Source: Flaccisagitta enflata (taxonomy: Eukaryota). Taken from it: a stretch of DNA of 64,000 nucleotides. Positions 22,761 through 29,066 of the stretch are shown here, one piece after another (position 1 is the first letter of the stretch; the number at the start of each line of letters is the position of its first letter). Position numbers and translations under genes: made by a program. The notes under the pieces are model-generated. The model was not told the DNA's origin, ran no database searches, and saw only the letters and a list, made by a program, of their open reading frames with translations. The stretch spans positions 30,008,001 to 30,072,000 of the forward strand of contig OZ231126.1 of assembly GCA_965153355.1 (NCBI GenBank), given 5' to 3'.

Positions 22761-23884
22761 ACTCAATCAAAGTGTATAGGCCGATGGTGTGCGCCAATTG
22801 AAAATCTATGCTCGCTATGTCAGTCTATGATCGTTATTCCATTTTTTTCACACTCAAATGTGATAACTGTAATAAACACGCCTGCTCACGTTAATGCTAA
22901 TGAGCGTTTCAAAGCTGCATGGCAGAAACTAATTAACCGGCTGTAAAAGCCAACTTTGATTTATACCCGCTTATCAAAGGCTTGAACTTCTTTTGAAATA
23001 ATTAATTTAATGAGGCTCGGTTTCTCTCTCTCTCTCTCTCTCTCTCTCTCTCTCTCTCTCTCTCTCTCTCTCTCTCTCTCTCTCTCTCTCTCTCTCTCTC
23101 TCTCACTCACACTCACACACACACACACACACACACACACACACACACACACACACACACACACACACACACACACACACACACACACACACACACACAC
23201 ACACACACACACACACACACACACACACACACACACACACGTACCTACACACATACACATGAATTGACGAACCCACGCCCTCATTCACTCTTCGTTCTAT
23301 AAGTGGAGCCAAGAGGGAGAGCTCAAGCCAAGAGGCGTTGCTTTCAGGCCTTCAGGGTTTCCTCGCTTCCTTTTAATGACGAAAAAAAGCCTAACGGCAT
23401 GGGCCAGTAATAAGCGCGAAATGGCGAAGCCCAAGGAGAAGAAGAAGACGAAGAAATAGAAGAGTGATAAGAAGGAGAAGAAGAAGAGTGAGATGAAGGA
23501 GAAGAAGGAGAGGAAGAAGAAAAAGAAAAAAAGAAGAGAAAGAAGAAAAAGAAGAGGAGGAAGAAGAAGAAGAAGAAGAAGAAGAAGAAGAAGAAGAAGA
23601 AGAAGAAGAAGAAGAAGAAGAAGAAGAAGAAGAAGAAGAAGAAGAAGAAGAAGAAGAAGAAGAAAAAGAAAGAAGAGAAGGAAGAAAAAGAAGAAGAAGA
23701 AAAAGAAAAAGAAAAAGAAAAAGAAAAAGAAAAAGAAAAAGAAAAAGAAAAAGAAAAAGAAAAAGAAGAAGAAGAAAAAGAGGAGGAGGAAAAAGAGATA
23801 GGAGAAGAAAATAGAGAAGAAAGGAAAAAAAAGAAAAAAATAGAAAAGAAACGAAAAGAAAAGAAAACAGGAAGAGAAGATGAA

Positions 23885-24031
23885 ACAAGGCCGGATACAC
23901 GGCCATACCAGTTGCGGACGGGTGGGCAGGGGCGTAAATGCGCGTTTTCACACTTTTCGACTCGTGCTCACCGACCGACCGACCGACGGACGGACGGACC
24001 AAGGCTTTTATAGAGTTGCGTGTCCGCAACT
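23885..24031 (-). mobile_element. HINE subfamily A2 (subTIR AGTTGCGGAC)
   Basis: Near-identical to 55975-56119. Confidence 0.75.
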
Positions 24032-24448: not shown

Positions 24449-26432
24449 CATGTACCCCCTCCCAAATGTACCCCAAAATGAGATTCTGGCCCTAAAACCG
24501 GGGATTTTCTGCAATGTACCCTAGATGTACCCCATTACAATGTACTGGGGATTGTTTGCAATGTACCCCCCTTTGCCAAGATGTACCCTCATTATAAGTG
24601 GGGATTGATTTGAAATGTACCCTTTTTTGCCTAGATGTACCCCCTTACTTTTTAAGTGGGTTTTGATCTCAAATGTACCCCTAATAATTGAGATGTACCC
24701 CCTTCAATATCAGTGGGTTTACATCCCAAATGTACCCCTTACATTTGAAATGTACCCAAAGATTTTTTCCTTAGTTTTGGATTGCTCTCAGATGTACCCT
24801 CTTCATTATAAGTGGGTTTCGATCTCAAATGTAACCCTAATAATTGAGATGTACCCCCTTCAGTGCCAGGTGGGTTTAGATCTAAATATGTACTTACATT
24901 TGAAATGTACACAGATTTTTCCTTAGTTTTGGATTGGTCTCAGATATACCCTTTTCATTATGAGTGATTTTCGATCTCAAATGTATGTCTGATGGTGGAG
25001 ATGTACCCCCTTCAATATGAGTGGGTTTAGATCCCAAATGTGCCACTTACATTTGAAATATACCCCCAGATTTTTCCTTAGTTTTAGTGTTGCTCTCAGA
25101 TGTACCCTCTTCATTATAAGTGGGTTTCGATCTCAAATGTACCCACAGTGGTGAGATGCTTACCCCTTCAATATAGTGAGTTGAATCCCAAATGTACCCC
25201 TTACATTTGAAATGTACCCCAGATTTTTCATTAGTTATGGATTGGTCTCAGATGTACCCTCTTCGTATAAGTGAGTTTCGATCTCAAATGTACCCCTGAT
25301 AATTGAGATGTACCCCTTCAATATCAGTGGGTTTAGATCCCAAATGTACCCCTTACATTTGAAATGTGTGCCCCCAGATTTTTTTCCTTAGTCTTAGTTG
25401 CTCTCAGATGTACCCTCTTCATTATAAGTGGGTTTCATTCTCAAATGTACTATATTTGAGATGTACCCCCTTCATAATCAGTGGGTTTTGATCCCAAATG
25501 TACCCCTTACATTTGAAATGTACCCCCAGATTTTTTCCTTAGTTTTGGATTGCTCTCAGATGTACCCTCTTCATTATAAGTGGGTTTCGATCTCAAATGT
25601 ACCCCTGATAATTGAGATGTACCCCCTTCAATATCAGTGGGTTTAGATCCCAAATGTACCCCTTACATTTGAAATGTACCCCCAGATTTTTTCCTTAGTT
25701 TTGGATTGCTCTCAGATGTACCCTCTTCATTTAAAGTGGGTTTCGATCTCAAATGTACCCCTTATATTTGAAATGTACCCCCAGATTTTTTCCTTAGTTT
25801 TGGATTGCTCTCAGATGTACCCTCTTCATTATAAGTAGGTTTCGATCTCTCAAATGTACCCCAGTGTTTGAGGTCTTACCCCCTTCAATATCAGTGAGTT
25901 TAGATCCCAAATGTACCCCTTACACATCTGAAATGTACCCCAGATATTTTCCTTATCCTTAGTTTTGGATTGCCCTCAGATGTACCCTCTTCATTTTAAG
26001 TGGTTTTTGATCTCAAATGTACCCCTTATATTTGAAATATACCCGAATATTTTCCTTAGTTTTGGATTATCTCAGATGTACCTCTTCATTATAAGTGGGT
26101 TTCGATCTCAAATATTCTGATAATTGAGATGTGCCCATTGCAATATCAGTGGTTTAGAATCCCAAATGTACCCTTACATTTGAAATGTACCCCAGATTTT
26201 CCTTAGTTTTGGTTGCTCAGATGTACCCCCTTCATTATCAGTGGGTTTAGATCTCAAATGTACCCCTTACATTTGAAATGTACCCCTAATTTTTCACTTA
26301 GTTTTGGATTGATCTCAGATGTACCCCTCTTCTGTTATCAAGTGGGATTAGATCTCAAATGTATACAGTAATTGAGATGTACCCCCTTCAATATCAGTGG
26401 GTTTAGATCCCAAATGTACCCCTTACATTTGA
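24449..26432. repeat. ~155-bp satellite built from ATGTACCC subrepeats
   Basis: TGTACCCTCTTC near 24793, 25101, 25253, 25409, 25561, 25717 (152-156-bp period). Confidence 0.92.
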
Positions 26433-29066
26433 CAACCACCATACATCATAGACTCATTAGAAATGAATTGATAGAATGTTTTGTTTTGTTTTGCCCCTGC
26501 TTCACAACCAGTTTCCAACCACCATACAAAATGAATTTATGCTTATCTTGATGATCGTTGTTTGAGACAACTCTACACAACACAACACAACGCAATACAA
26601 TACAACACAATACAGCACAACATTCACCATTAATTTACTTATTCATTCATTCATTCATTCATTCAGTTGTTTTTTCCATTCATTTATTTTTTCATTCATT
26701 CATTTATTAGTTCATTCATTGATTCTTTCACTCATTTATTCATTTATCTATTCATTCATTTATTCAATCATTTCTTCTGACGGGGTGCGTATGAGAAAGG
26801 GGCTTACATATAGGCAGGGACAGGGATTGTGATGGCAGCTACAAATCTGAGAGATGCGTACCACAATTATCAGTTTGTGCGGCCTCGGAAAACGAAAATC
26901 TGCTTCTGCCTTCTCTTTCATTCAGGGTCAAATCCATTATTTGCTCTCTTTCCTTCTTTCGTTTTTTCTTTCTTTCTTTCTTTCTTTCTTTCTTTCTTTC
27001 TTTCTTTCTCTCTCTCTCTCTCTCTCTCTCTCTTTCTCTCTCTCTCTTCCTCTTTTTCGTTTTTGGCCATTTCCTTGTCAGAATCATTTCCAGGAATTGA
27101 AAATTGGAAATTGACCATTTGCCCTTGGAAGTTGGAACTCCCACCGGTCACGCGCGAAGATAAACAAGGACACGCGATGATACGAACGAGGACACACTCC
27201 ACGCATGCACGCACACCCTTCGACACACGATCCAAAAAAAAACACCTACAAACCCTATCATCATACACAGATAAACAAAAACTAACAAATCCATGTACAA
27301 GGGACGCGCGCGTGTACACACACACACACACACAGACACACACACACACACACACACACACACACACACACACACACACACACACACACACACACACACA
27401 CACACACACACACACACACACACACACACACACAAACAAACACACACACACACACACACACACACACACACACACACACACACACACACACACACACACA
27501 CACACACACACACACACACACACACACACACAAACTCAATCAAAGTGTATAGGCCGATGGTGTGCGCCAATTGAAAATCTATGCTCGCTATGTCAGTCTA
27601 TGATCGTTATTCCATTTTTTTCACACTCAAATGTGATAACTGTAATAAACACGCCTGCTCACGTTAATGCTAATGAGCGTTTCAAAGCTGCATGGCAGAA
27701 ACTAATTAACCGGCTGTAAAAGCCAACTCCTCTTGATTTATACCCGCTATCAAAGGCTTCAAACTTCTTTTGAAAAATAATTAATTTAATGAGGTCTCTC
27801 TCTCTCTCTCTCTCTCTCTCTCTCTTTCCGCACGCACGCACACAGACACACACACACACTGACACACACACACACACAAACAACACACATACACACACAC
27901 ACACGTACCTGCACACATACACACACACACACACGAATTGACGAACCCACGCCCTCATTCACTCTTCGTTCTATAAGTGGAGCCAAGAGGGAGAGCTCAA
28001 GCCAAGAGGCGTTGCTTTCAGGCCTTCGGGGTTTCCTCGCTTCCTTTTAATGACGAAAAAAAGGCTAACGGCATGGGCCAGTAACAAGCGCGAAATGGCG
28101 AAGCCGAAGGAGAAGAAGAAGACGAAGAAGTAGAAGAGTAAGAAGAAGGAGAAGAAGAAGAGTGAGATGAAGGAGAAGAAGGAGAGGAAGAAGAAAAAGA
28201 AAAAAAAGAAGTGAAAGAAGAAAAAGAAGAGGAGGAAGAAGAGGAGGAAGAAGAAGAAGAAGAAGAAGAAGAAGAGGAAGAAGAAGAAGAAGAAGAAGAA
28301 GAAGAAGAAGAAGAAGAAGAAGAAGAAGAAGAAGAAGAAGAAGAAGAAGAAAAAGAAAAAGAAAGAAGAGAAAGAAGAAAAAGAAGAAGAAAAAGAAAAA
28401 GAAAAAGAAAAAGAAAAAGAAAAAGAAAAAGAAGAAGAAGAAGAGGAGGAGGAAAAAGAGATAGGAGAAGAAAATAGAGAAGAAAGGAAAAAAAAGAAAA
28501 AAATAGAAAAGAAACGAAAAGAAAAGAAAAGAAAACAGGTAGAGAAGATGAAACAAGGCCAAGTAGGCCAATAAGGTGCGACGTGTGGATCGTCGAACGA
28601 ATGCGTTACCCGACCAACAGACCGACCAACAGACGGACACAGCCAGTTAAAGAGGTGCTTTGTCGCACCTAAAAATATGAAAAATCTCAACAATCGCAAC
28701 GAAGAATCAAGGCCGGATACATGGCTACCCCAGTCGTGTGCAGGTAGGCAGGGGCCATTTCTTAGGTCACTAGATTATTCGGGCAGGAGCAGTGAGGTCA
28801 AGGGGAAAAAACATGAAAAAAGTAAAATGTGACTGACCGACAGACAGACCAACCGACCAACGGTCAAAGCGGGGTGTAGAGTCGCGTAGAAATTGATCAT
28901 GACGACGACGACGACGACGACGTTAATTACAATGATCAATAACCTCCTGTGGTTGGGATGATTATGTAGACTGATGGACTTGACGGTTCTTGATCCAATT
29001 CAAACGTCAATTGTCGTTTTCATCGAGTAGCGAGTAATAAAGTGACTTTGTGAGGCCGAAATATTG
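26433..29066. repeat. Duplicate of 21507-24433
   Basis: Same unique segments and microsatellite order with length differences. Confidence 0.93.
28553..28670 (-). mobile_element. HINE subfamily A3 (subTIR AGGTGCGAC)
   Basis: AGGTGCGAC ... AGGTGCTTTGTCGCACCT; related copy at ~14447-14640. Confidence 0.7.

Follow-up and report, generated by a model that had tools for sequence, protein, structure and literature searches.

Two different HINE families at one nucleotide position in paralogous copies of a local duplication in Flaccisagitta enflata

When two paralogous copies of a duplicated segment carry different transposable elements at exactly the same base, has one element replaced the other, or has one target been used twice? 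The question is raised by a locus in Flaccisagitta enflata (contig OZ231126.1 of assembly GCA_965153355.1), located in a stretch of 64,000 nucleotides that was analysed as a whole and is called the window here. We favour, at a probability of roughly 0.55, the reading that ordinary Helentron rolling-circle integration took the same T|T junction twice, and not that a new swapping mechanism was at work.

An initial annotation had placed the two insertion sites in paralogous copies, and a blastn self-comparison together with a MAFFT alignment bears this out. Copy B (21507..24433) and copy C (26433..29066), both unstranded features, form a local duplication with about 2.6 kb of paralogous sequence. 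Their substitution divergence is 1 to 4% outside simple repeats and 1 to 2.3% near the insertion site, where the left flank shows 1 substitution in 105 nt and the right flank 9 substitutions and one 6-nt indel in 396 aligned nt; judged from these alignments, the flanks of the site in B and C are clearly homologous. The self-comparison also yielded a third paralog of the left 0.6 kb of copy C (18548-19174, 92% identity), and no third paralog of the insertion site itself was found within the window. The region surrounding the duplication is full of simple repeats and satellites, and the one lying directly 3' of the site in copy B is a purine-rich (GAA/GAAAAA)n repeat, T/C-rich on the element strand, detected with TRF (23433..23884, unstranded) and having its copy C counterpart at 28106-28533.

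Between these flanks, copy B holds a HINE of 147 bp, A2 (23885..24031), and copy C a HINE of 118 bp, A3 (28553..28670), both on the minus strand. The junctions read ...GAAGATGAA|ACAAGGCC...GCAACT|AAAAATATGAAG in copy B and ...GAAGATGAA|ACAAGGCC...GCACCT|AAAAATATGAAA in copy C; the boundaries are exact and the flanking bases identical, as had been claimed when the locus was first annotated. A2 and A3 agree in 96 of 156 aligned columns (61.5%), compared with 97.7 to 99% identity in the adjoining flanks. Their ends have only 7 nt in common on the 5' side (TTTTTAG) and 10 nt on the 3' side (GGCCTTGTTT), the longest stretch they share being the internal microsatellite, and the boundary T-runs of the two paralogs match in length (5 and 3). 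To the right of each insert stands an A5 run (24032-24036 in B, 28671-28675 in C) that is probably the element's own 5' T-run, so that the shared right flank would partly be element sequence. At the 5' boundary of A2 (T5 on the minus strand, 24032..24036), metagenome contig alignments mostly reach 24036 and diverge past it, and boundary Ts are also counted as element sequence in the part of Thomas et al. (2014, PMC4067079) available to us.

Both inserts are composed of a T-run, a 5' subTIR with a nested inverted repeat, a (GTCC/GGTC)n microsatellite after this left module, a 3' subTIR and, between that and the terminus, a 3' hairpin ending GGCCTTGT. All of the following parts lie on the minus strand. 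In A2, the 5' subTIR AGTTGCGGAC and the nested inverted repeat AGTTGCG-gaca-CGCAACT, read from the sequence and paired in the DNA fold, occupy 24014..24031, and the 3' subTIR GTCCGCAACT (23910..23919) complements the 5' subTIR at 10 of 10 positions, AGTTGCGGAC being found at 23910-23919 and its complement at 24022-24031. The A2 microsatellite spans 23971..23999, and the 3' palindrome GGCCG-tgtatc-CGGCC (23889..23904; stem GGCCG/CGGCC, 5 bp) folds into a hairpin in both the MFE and the centroid prediction and is followed by the terminus TTGT. In A3, the 5' subTIR AGGTGCGAC and the nested inverted repeat AGGTGC-gacaaa-GCACCT occupy 28653..28670, again supported by the sequence reading and the DNA fold, and the 3' subTIR GTCGCACCT (28574..28582) complements the 5' subTIR at 9 of 9 positions, AGGTGCGAC being located at 28574-28582 and the complementary sequence at 28662-28670. 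The same central microsatellite is present, and the 3' palindrome GGCC-tactt-GGCC (28557..28569; stem GGCC/GGCC, 4 bp), likewise a hairpin in the MFE and centroid folds, precedes the same TTGT terminus.

Neither element has a target duplication or coding capacity. By their sequence organisation, A2 and A3 are intact non-autonomous Helentrons (HINE/DINE-1-like), and the HINE architecture first assigned to them is complete in each. Among the HINEs of the window, T-runs border 6 of 6 5' ends and 8 of 9 3' ends, consistent with insertion at TT without target duplication, the cut position being putative. No direct repeat of the flanks was found at 23885/24036 or at 55975/56125. The 5-nt motif ATGAA, which occurs on both sides of the insert, was rejected as a target duplication: it is offset by AAAAAT, its context is GAA-rich, and nothing comparable flanks the second A2 copy. 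This second copy (55975..56119, minus strand), already listed by the initial annotation, is 93.5% identical to the A2 of copy B, lies in unrelated flanks as an independent insertion, and sets the element boundaries without a target duplication. No match to a Helitron Rep or PIF1-type helicase was found when 37 ORF translations of the window were scanned against Pfam, and four terminal motifs of these elements, queried against full-text literature, returned no match.

The HINE/DINE-1 elements in the available part of Thomas et al. (2014, PMC4067079) resemble A2 and A3 in their subTIRs, 5' nested inverted repeat, short microsatellite and 3' stem-loop, and also in the boundary T strings, TT insertion in T-rich DNA, lack of target duplication and noncoding nature. 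The subTIRs of A2 and A3 (10 and 9 bp) fall slightly below the published 11 to 15 bp, with 12 to 15 bp given there for the mite and 13 bp for DINE-1. In the partial descriptions used here, Cg_HINE of the Pacific oyster and pearl/DTC84 of bivalves (PMC7492417, PMC3879986) have the same order in the left module (5' subTIR, complementary inverted repeat, GTCY/GTCC-type microsatellite, equal to ACGG), the same right module of 3' subTIR and palindrome, and oligo-T targets without TSD, and their families too differ by coordinated diagnostic changes in subTIR, inverted repeat and stem-loop. Unlike these elements, which were compared by description only, A2 and A3 lack central satellite-like tandem repeats.

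In the published scheme, members of one HINE family have the same subTIRs and are at least 80% identical over their last 60 bp. A2 and A3 differ in their subTIRs and are 61% identical over the last 60 nt, which places them in different HINE families by that scheme; the A2 of copy B and the A2 at 55977 are 90% identical over the same length. The coordinated differences in the 5' subTIR, the inverted repeat and the 3' subTIR point to two mobile families and not to the decay of one insert, and the perfect pairing of each element's own 5' and 3' subTIRs argues that neither is chimeric. The initial annotation had also recognised the A3 type at about 14447-14640. The element found there (14447..14690, minus strand, 5' end coordinate approximate) has an A3-like 3' hairpin, the GACGATCCA block and an expanded (GTCC)n array, but it is only 73% identical to A3 in its final 60 nt and its subTIR is different, which rules it out as a second A3 copy and makes it an A3-related HINE of a different subfamily. 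A blastn-short search with A3 as the query found no further A3 copies in the window.

A distance of 37 nt separates the site from the 3' end of X, an older HINE that lacks its 5' subTIR arm and is found in both paralogs (24069..24262 in B, 28708..28901 in C, minus strand). With 5 substitutions in 194 nt between the two, X predates the duplication. From the shared site to the 3' end of X runs a spacer of 32 nt (24037..24068, minus strand; counterpart 28676-28707), which within the window occurs only in B and C. By our own calculation, chance alone would give only about 0.09 gaps of at most 40 nt between neighbours, given about 12 independent insertions in about 56 kb.

Metagenome contigs were aligned to an 801-nt stretch of copy B, in which the left flank (23770-23880) was masked as repeat, and the results concern the right side of the site. 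For run X1, 42,586 contigs aligned, with a summed depth of about 1e7 over A2 versus about 120 on the unique flank, a depth figure that does not equal copy number. The A2-type HINE family is extremely abundant, its copy number being very high. Contigs joining the A2 5' end to the 3' terminus of another HINE (24031..24037 to 24069/24070) numbered 39 in X1, 44 in X3, 4 in X2 and 17 in X4, and those with loose ends at 24036 numbered 122, 120, 39 and 53, respectively, indicating that elsewhere in the genome HINE ends often adjoin each other in a head-to-tail neighbourhood. Searches of the metagenome contigs with a 25-nt spacer query gave 0 matches, and the 18-nt A3 5' hairpin gave 3, all in unrelated sequence without HINE context. 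The 19-nt A2 3' subTIR query had 2 matches in genome contigs, both GC-rich bacterial MAG contigs with no GGCCTTG nearby and set aside as chance, and the shared 3' hairpin had 0 matches in viral contigs.

The initial annotation proposed either that one element was swapped for the other by way of common termini or that two insertions hit one base; both options are live, replacement being a candidate history, and conversion through the shared termini is unlikely. In our preferred reading, the junction used twice is the T|T junction in the T/C-rich tract, situated downstream of resident X at 37 nt from its 3' end. A2 and A3 share only their outermost termini, where a Helentron Rep would cut (5' T-run plus AG, 3' GGCCTTGT). 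Both the order of events and a hot-spot property of the site are what we infer. There are 561 TT sites in copy C, counting both strands, and 30 T-runs of at least 5, so an exact independent second hit would have a probability of about 0.2% under uniform targeting, and of a few percent at most if only T-runs count. Exact double use is nonetheless admissible, since for other transposons it is far commoner than chance: in the available part of McGurk and Barbash (2018, PMC5932611), tandem dimers from double insertion are common in D. melanogaster. That case resembles ours in that one target is used twice within one transposition system above random expectation, whereas it concerns the same family in tandem on one chromosome and ours two families, each alone, on two paralogs. 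Transposition of Helraiser is replicative, and in the portion of that study at hand no empty donor sites were detected (PMC5876387), which makes ordinary insertion more plausible than excision-based swapping.

Composition alone does not make the site hot, as the T content of element flanks in the window is only mildly raised (0.49 versus 0.40 at random TT sites, n=9), and 9 3' flanks and 6 5' flanks showed no target motif beyond T-richness. The B/C and A/B paralogous sequence contains no further HINE that is present in one copy and absent from the other, so that the sole two post-duplication insertions would share one base, which speaks against double insertion. The equal T-run lengths would be expected if the boundaries were inherited, whereas independent insertions would match in this way by coincidence only about 1 time in 4.

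Double use of the junction could have come about in two ways. The site may have been empty at the duplication, A2 then entering B and A3 entering C independently, a version that we hold tentatively. Less likely, one element was resident at the duplication, and the other family joined at its T-run, after which the resident was lost. In this case the incoming family would integrate at the resident's T-run boundary, giving a head-to-tail dimer in one paralog, and the resident would be deleted between directly repeated termini (TTTTTAG or GGCCTTGTTT). This version is weakened by its need for a base-precise deletion and by the absence of a tandem dimer at the locus; an empty allele did not appear either, in contigs that, with the left flank masked, would have revealed neither form. 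The sites available for CpG-decay dating are estimated to be too few to separate insertion before from insertion after the duplication.

Of the readings other than double use, the one that survives best, though improbable, is a one-step, resident-directed exchange by Helentron Rep, in which the incoming family replaces the resident at the same T|T junctions. Rep carrying a copy of one family would cut the resident at its 5' and 3' T|T junctions, recognised by the shared termini, and the incoming strand would be joined in the resident's place, leaving one daughter chromosome with the new family at the old position after replication; alternatively, re-synthesis of the peeled donor strand might switch template to the other element. 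A single event would suffice, and it would account for boundaries and T-run lengths that are identical in both paralogs and for terminal bases that the families share exactly where Rep would cut. An inherited resident is plausible, as 20,304 of the 42,586 X1 contigs are 90 to 95% identical to the 801-nt stretch, suggesting that numerous A2 copies predate the duplication (about 1 to 2% divergence per lineage).

Targeted transposition and replacement of P elements were reportedly studied by Gloor (1991) and by Heslip and Hodgetts (1994). That a resident P element attracts an incomer with the same termini, which then either inserts in tandem or precisely replaces the resident in the same place, is established, and in the partial account used here 34 of 50 X-linked hops landed in roX1, 32 as tandem insertions and 2 as precise replacements (PMC3887531). 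The P element is, however, a cut-and-paste DDE transposon whose replacement proceeds via a double-strand break and gap repair, whereas Helentrons use an HUH nuclease on a single strand; no event of the P type is reported for Helentrons, and no such Helitron or Helentron reaction is described, in the literature examined. Helraiser/Helitron, as far as the source at hand goes (PMC5876387), resembles Helentrons in having an HUH Rep-helicase, in transferring a single strand, in integrating precisely and without a target duplication, in using a 3' hairpin to signal termination and in its known head-to-tail junctions; for Helraiser, donor copies were not seen to be lost. Whereas Helentrons insert at TT and additionally encode an endonuclease (PMC4067079, same partial source), Helitrons insert at AT and have no subTIRs. 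Against exchange there is also the fact that the window offers one case only, X and the 17507/20472 pair having retained the same element in both paralogs, and since the subTIRs differ, one Rep for both families is unproven. A cassette-like exchange of non-autonomous families by Helentron Rep at the same two T|T junctions, guided by shared termini, appears more doubtful still.

Ectopic gene conversion or a replication template switch, copying a distant HINE over the resident via the short shared termini, is very unlikely. Donors would be plentiful, HINE copies being very numerous, and interlocus conversion of SINE subfamilies is known for Alu, in the available part of that preprint (bioRxiv 10.1101/241356). 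The end homology of just 7 nt and 10 nt, next to flanks that would be unrelated in any donor, and the overall identity of 61.5%, far under the level that homologous repair normally uses, argue against it, as does the position of the longest shared stretch in the internal microsatellite, which would lead one to expect chimeras, whereas A2 and A3 are internally coherent. An assembly artefact, with the paralogs being haplotypes or mis-joined reads or one insert a consensus error, is the least probable of all. Simple repeats and satellites do abound, and the contigs spanned neither the left junction nor copy C. The window is, however, free of N, and the three copies of the duplicated unit's left part, with pairwise identities of 96, 93 and 92%, are more than two haplotypes could account for. 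In two different metagenome studies there are contigs running from the A2 5' end through the B-type spacer (G at 24043) into X, with 0 and 1 mismatches, and run X3 has both the B-type and the C-type letter at 24333 (141.5 of 254.3 depth). Nor would an error produce a 118-bp element of another family that is complete, self-complementary and placed exactly between the boundaries.

If the junction was used twice, the locus is a small, clean example of insertion homoplasy for rolling-circle elements, and it cautions against relying on transposon content to date duplications and against assuming that shared HINE or Helitron sites are free of homoplasy when they serve as markers. If residents attract incomers or are exchanged for them, this would be a new property of HUH-type eukaryotic transposases, bearing on the origin of HINE arrays and HINE-derived satellites, and with cassette exchange by Rep, HINE families would turn over in place while the insertion map stayed unchanged. 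A single locus cannot decide between double use and exchange; it is a pointer in a genome where HINEs are extremely abundant.

In the metagenome contigs, the A2 of copy B departs from the majority letter of its family at 23935, 24000, 24004 and 24007. At three of these four positions, 7 to 23% of the depth carries the B letter, suggesting that the departing letters may be subfamily variants.

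The DNA of the window is eukaryotic, rich in repeats, and contains 0 N. It includes a local duplication, in which copy B (positions 21507 to 24433) and copy C (positions 26433 to 29066) can be aligned across about 2.6 kb. The alignment is interrupted at one point, where copy B carries A2, a 147-bp HINE (a non-autonomous, DINE-1-like Helentron; 23885 to 24031, minus strand), and copy C carries A3, a HINE of 118 bp (28553 to 28670, minus strand). The bases flanking the two inserts are identical, the left flank reading ...GAAGATGAA and the right flank AAAAATATGAA. To the left of this shared site, the copies differ by 1 substitution in 105 nt, and the 396 aligned nt to its right contain 9 substitutions plus one indel of 6 nt; farther away, the divergence is 2.8 to 4.1%. 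Per lineage, the duplication has diverged by roughly 1 to 2%. The initial annotation had described two different elements between identical flanks in paralogous copies, which is correct at these positions; the inserts agree in 96 of 156 alignment columns (61.5%), mostly at the ends and in a common microsatellite. The shared occupancy of one base by two families in paralogs is real and uncommon; it was observed once here and can be accounted for by known processes. Among the open-access papers listed in full-text searches, we found none on two Helitron or HINE families that share a base between paralogs; supplementary tables of HINE studies may list insertion sites.

On the minus strand, A2 and A3 follow a common plan, in which a T5 run is followed by a 5' subterminal inverted repeat (subTIR) with its hairpin, a microsatellite, a 3' subTIR, a hairpin, and the terminus. 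The 5' subTIR hairpin with the next bases reads AGTTGCG-gaca-CGCAACT in A2 and AGGTGC-gacaaa-GCACCT in A3, and the microsatellite is (GTCC/GGTC)n in both. The 3' subTIR is the exact complement of the element's own 5' subTIR (10/10 bases in A2, 9/9 in A3), the short 3' hairpin is GGCCG...CGGCC or GGCC...GGCC, and both elements end in TTGT, followed by a T. Neither has coding capacity. A second A2 copy (55975 to 56119), which is 93.5% identical, lies in unrelated flanks and shows no target duplication, indicating that these elements insert without one. The DNA folds of all three copies combine a subTIR panhandle with the 3' hairpin, with z-scores of -1.6, -2.5, and -4.2, the first being weak alone. 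DINE-1 and other Helentron-associated interspersed elements match this architecture (PMC4067079), and the oyster Cg_HINE is alike down to a GTCY-type microsatellite and T-rich, TT, TSD-free targets (PMC7492417). A2 and A3 are ordinary HINEs, an already known kind of element.

Over their last 60 nt, A2 and A3 are 61% identical and their subTIRs are not identical, which makes them different families under the 2014 scheme. The differences are coordinated across three interacting blocks, so that A2 and A3 represent two functional lineages rather than decayed descendants of one insert. The A3 type had also been placed at about 14447 to 14640, but the element there is only a relative, which has the same hairpin type plus a GACGATCCA block, 73% identity over the last 60 nt, and another subTIR; no second A3 copy is found elsewhere in the window. 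In this relative, the (GGAC)n array is expanded and degenerate and spans about 110 nt (14500 to 14610), which illustrates microsatellite growth within a HINE.

HINEs are extremely abundant in this genome, and the window alone holds about 15 copies or fragments, corresponding to about 12 independent insertions after duplicates are collapsed. One of them, X, is a resident HINE separated from the shared site by 37 nt in both copies (24069 to 24262 and 28708 to 28901), in head-to-tail orientation and with its 5' subTIR arm absent. X is common to both paralogs and differs between them at only 5 of 194 nt, so it is older than the duplication.

Contigs of four sequencing runs were aligned to positions 23770 to 24570 of copy B, the left junction and copy C lying outside this coverage. 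The stretch is present in public runs of one organism and in several marine metagenomes. In one run (X1), the summed depth is about 1e7 over A2 versus about 120 on the unique flank; since such depth is not a copy number, we take it only as a sign of a very abundant A2 family. At least 39, 44, 4, and 17 contigs in the four runs lead from an A2 5' end to the 3' terminus of another HINE, possibly with intervening letters, and at least 122, 120, 39, and 53 have loose ends at the same A2 boundary. The many contigs of the first kind indicate that HINE ends often adjoin in this genome, and head-to-tail junctions are known for Helitrons (PMC5876387).

The reading that we favor, with a joint probability of roughly 0.55 for its two versions, is that ordinary integration reused one T|T junction. 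In the first version, tentatively the stronger, each paralog would have received an independent insertion, the second hitting exactly the same base. Copy C offers 561 TT sites and 30 T-runs of at least 5, the T content of HINE flanks in the window is only mildly raised (0.49 vs 0.40, n=9), and no other HINE presence/absence differences were found in paralogous sequence. Under random targeting, an exact independent second hit is a coincidence of 0.2% to a few percent. This figure is softened because the survey spans very many windows, because other transposons are known to hit one site twice much more often than random targeting would give (PMC5932611), and because the shared site is unusually close to the 3' end of a resident HINE, neighbor gaps as short as this one being expected about 0.09 times in the window by chance. 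The 3' end of X could recruit Rep, the Helentron/Helitron transposase, in both paralogs.

In the second version, which we consider unlikely, the second family would have arrived at the boundary of an inherited element, and the resident would have been lost afterwards by deletion between directly repeated termini. Here, and equally in the one-step exchange discussed below, one new insertion suffices, and the equal lengths of the boundary T-runs seen in the two paralogs (5 and 3) are explained. The share of insertions at resident ends is 0 to 1/12 in the window and 9 to 27% of the contig variants listed. Depending on that share, the rough odds for the resident-directed route against independent hits swing from about 0.4 to 4, so that the two routes are not separated.

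A one-step exchange mediated by Rep, in which the resident is lost in the same reaction as the newcomer's arrival, would be new if true, and we find it doubtful. Targeted transposition of the P element provides a published experimental parallel to both resident-directed routes: of 50 X-linked hops, 34 were directed to the resident element, 32 of them as tandem insertions and 2 as precise replacements (PMC3887531). However, such targeting is not reported for HUH-type elements, and Helraiser showed no empty donor sites (PMC5876387). Homologous conversion is the weakest option among the mechanisms and very improbable: the longest stretch shared by A2 and A3 is the internal microsatellite, so that conversion should yield chimeras, whereas each element has perfectly matched subTIRs of its own type and their ends have only 7 and 10 nt in common. 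An assembly artefact is more improbable still, given two short contigs of separate metagenome studies that, in the covered part of copy B, run from the A2 5' end through the B-type spacer into X (0 and 1 mismatches), the presence of both letters in run X3 at position 24333, which distinguishes B from C, and the existence of the left part of the duplicated unit in three copies.

The gap between copies B and C is occupied exactly by a satellite-like array of about 2 kb (24437 to 26432; TRF periods 99, 156, 255, and 308; recurring motif ATGTACCCC), and copy C begins one base past its end. A 273-nt contig from a metagenome run (X4) matches 24297 to 24433 with 1 mismatch and continues with 99 unaligned letters. 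Position 24433 is the exact end of B/C homology, and unitigs from 4/4 runs also begin at 24425 to 24434; these breaks are consistent with two different continuations of the B/C sequence in the reads.

Other HINE remains are scattered over the window. The X-type copies beside the shared site and at 12789 to 12999 (ending at 12997) represent two independent insertions, which both begin precisely where the 3' arm of their 5' inverted repeat does (ACGCGACT... and ACTCGACT...), so that neither T-run nor 5' subTIR arm is present. Their common truncation point at the hairpin loop suggests either that they form a distinct subfamily or that breaks or nicks recur at this loop. A second, younger tandem duplication (16707 to 19670 vs 19677 to 22704, 96% identical) carries the same X-type HINE in both units (17507 to 17725 and 20472 to 20684), each unit being preceded by a 282-bp satellite with 129/153-bp sub-periods (16004 to 17422 and 19677 to 20388). 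At 35763 to 36481 (minus strand), about 720 bp of other sequence separates an X-type 5' end (TTTTTAGTCGGGTGC..., about 36481) from an X-type 3' end (35763); the two ends may belong to one long HINE that carries internal cargo, or they may be separate fragments. Two A2-type fragments are isolated: at 34360 to 34490, a 5' module is followed by a long (GTCC)n array but by no 3' module, and at 9816 to 9837, 22 nt match the A2 3' subTIR region perfectly but the hairpin is missing.

None of the 37 ORF translations scanned from the window matched a Helitron or Helentron protein. The regions 41622 to 52506 and 54105 to 59620 are host genes, MCM3-like (exons for MCM OB, P-loop, and MCM3 winged-helix) and INO80-like (exons for DBINO and SNF2), respectively, and the second A2 copy sits between exons of the latter. 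A segment of 454 nt at 30855 to 31308 shows 84.5% identity to its own reverse complement, forming a large palindrome or inverted duplication.
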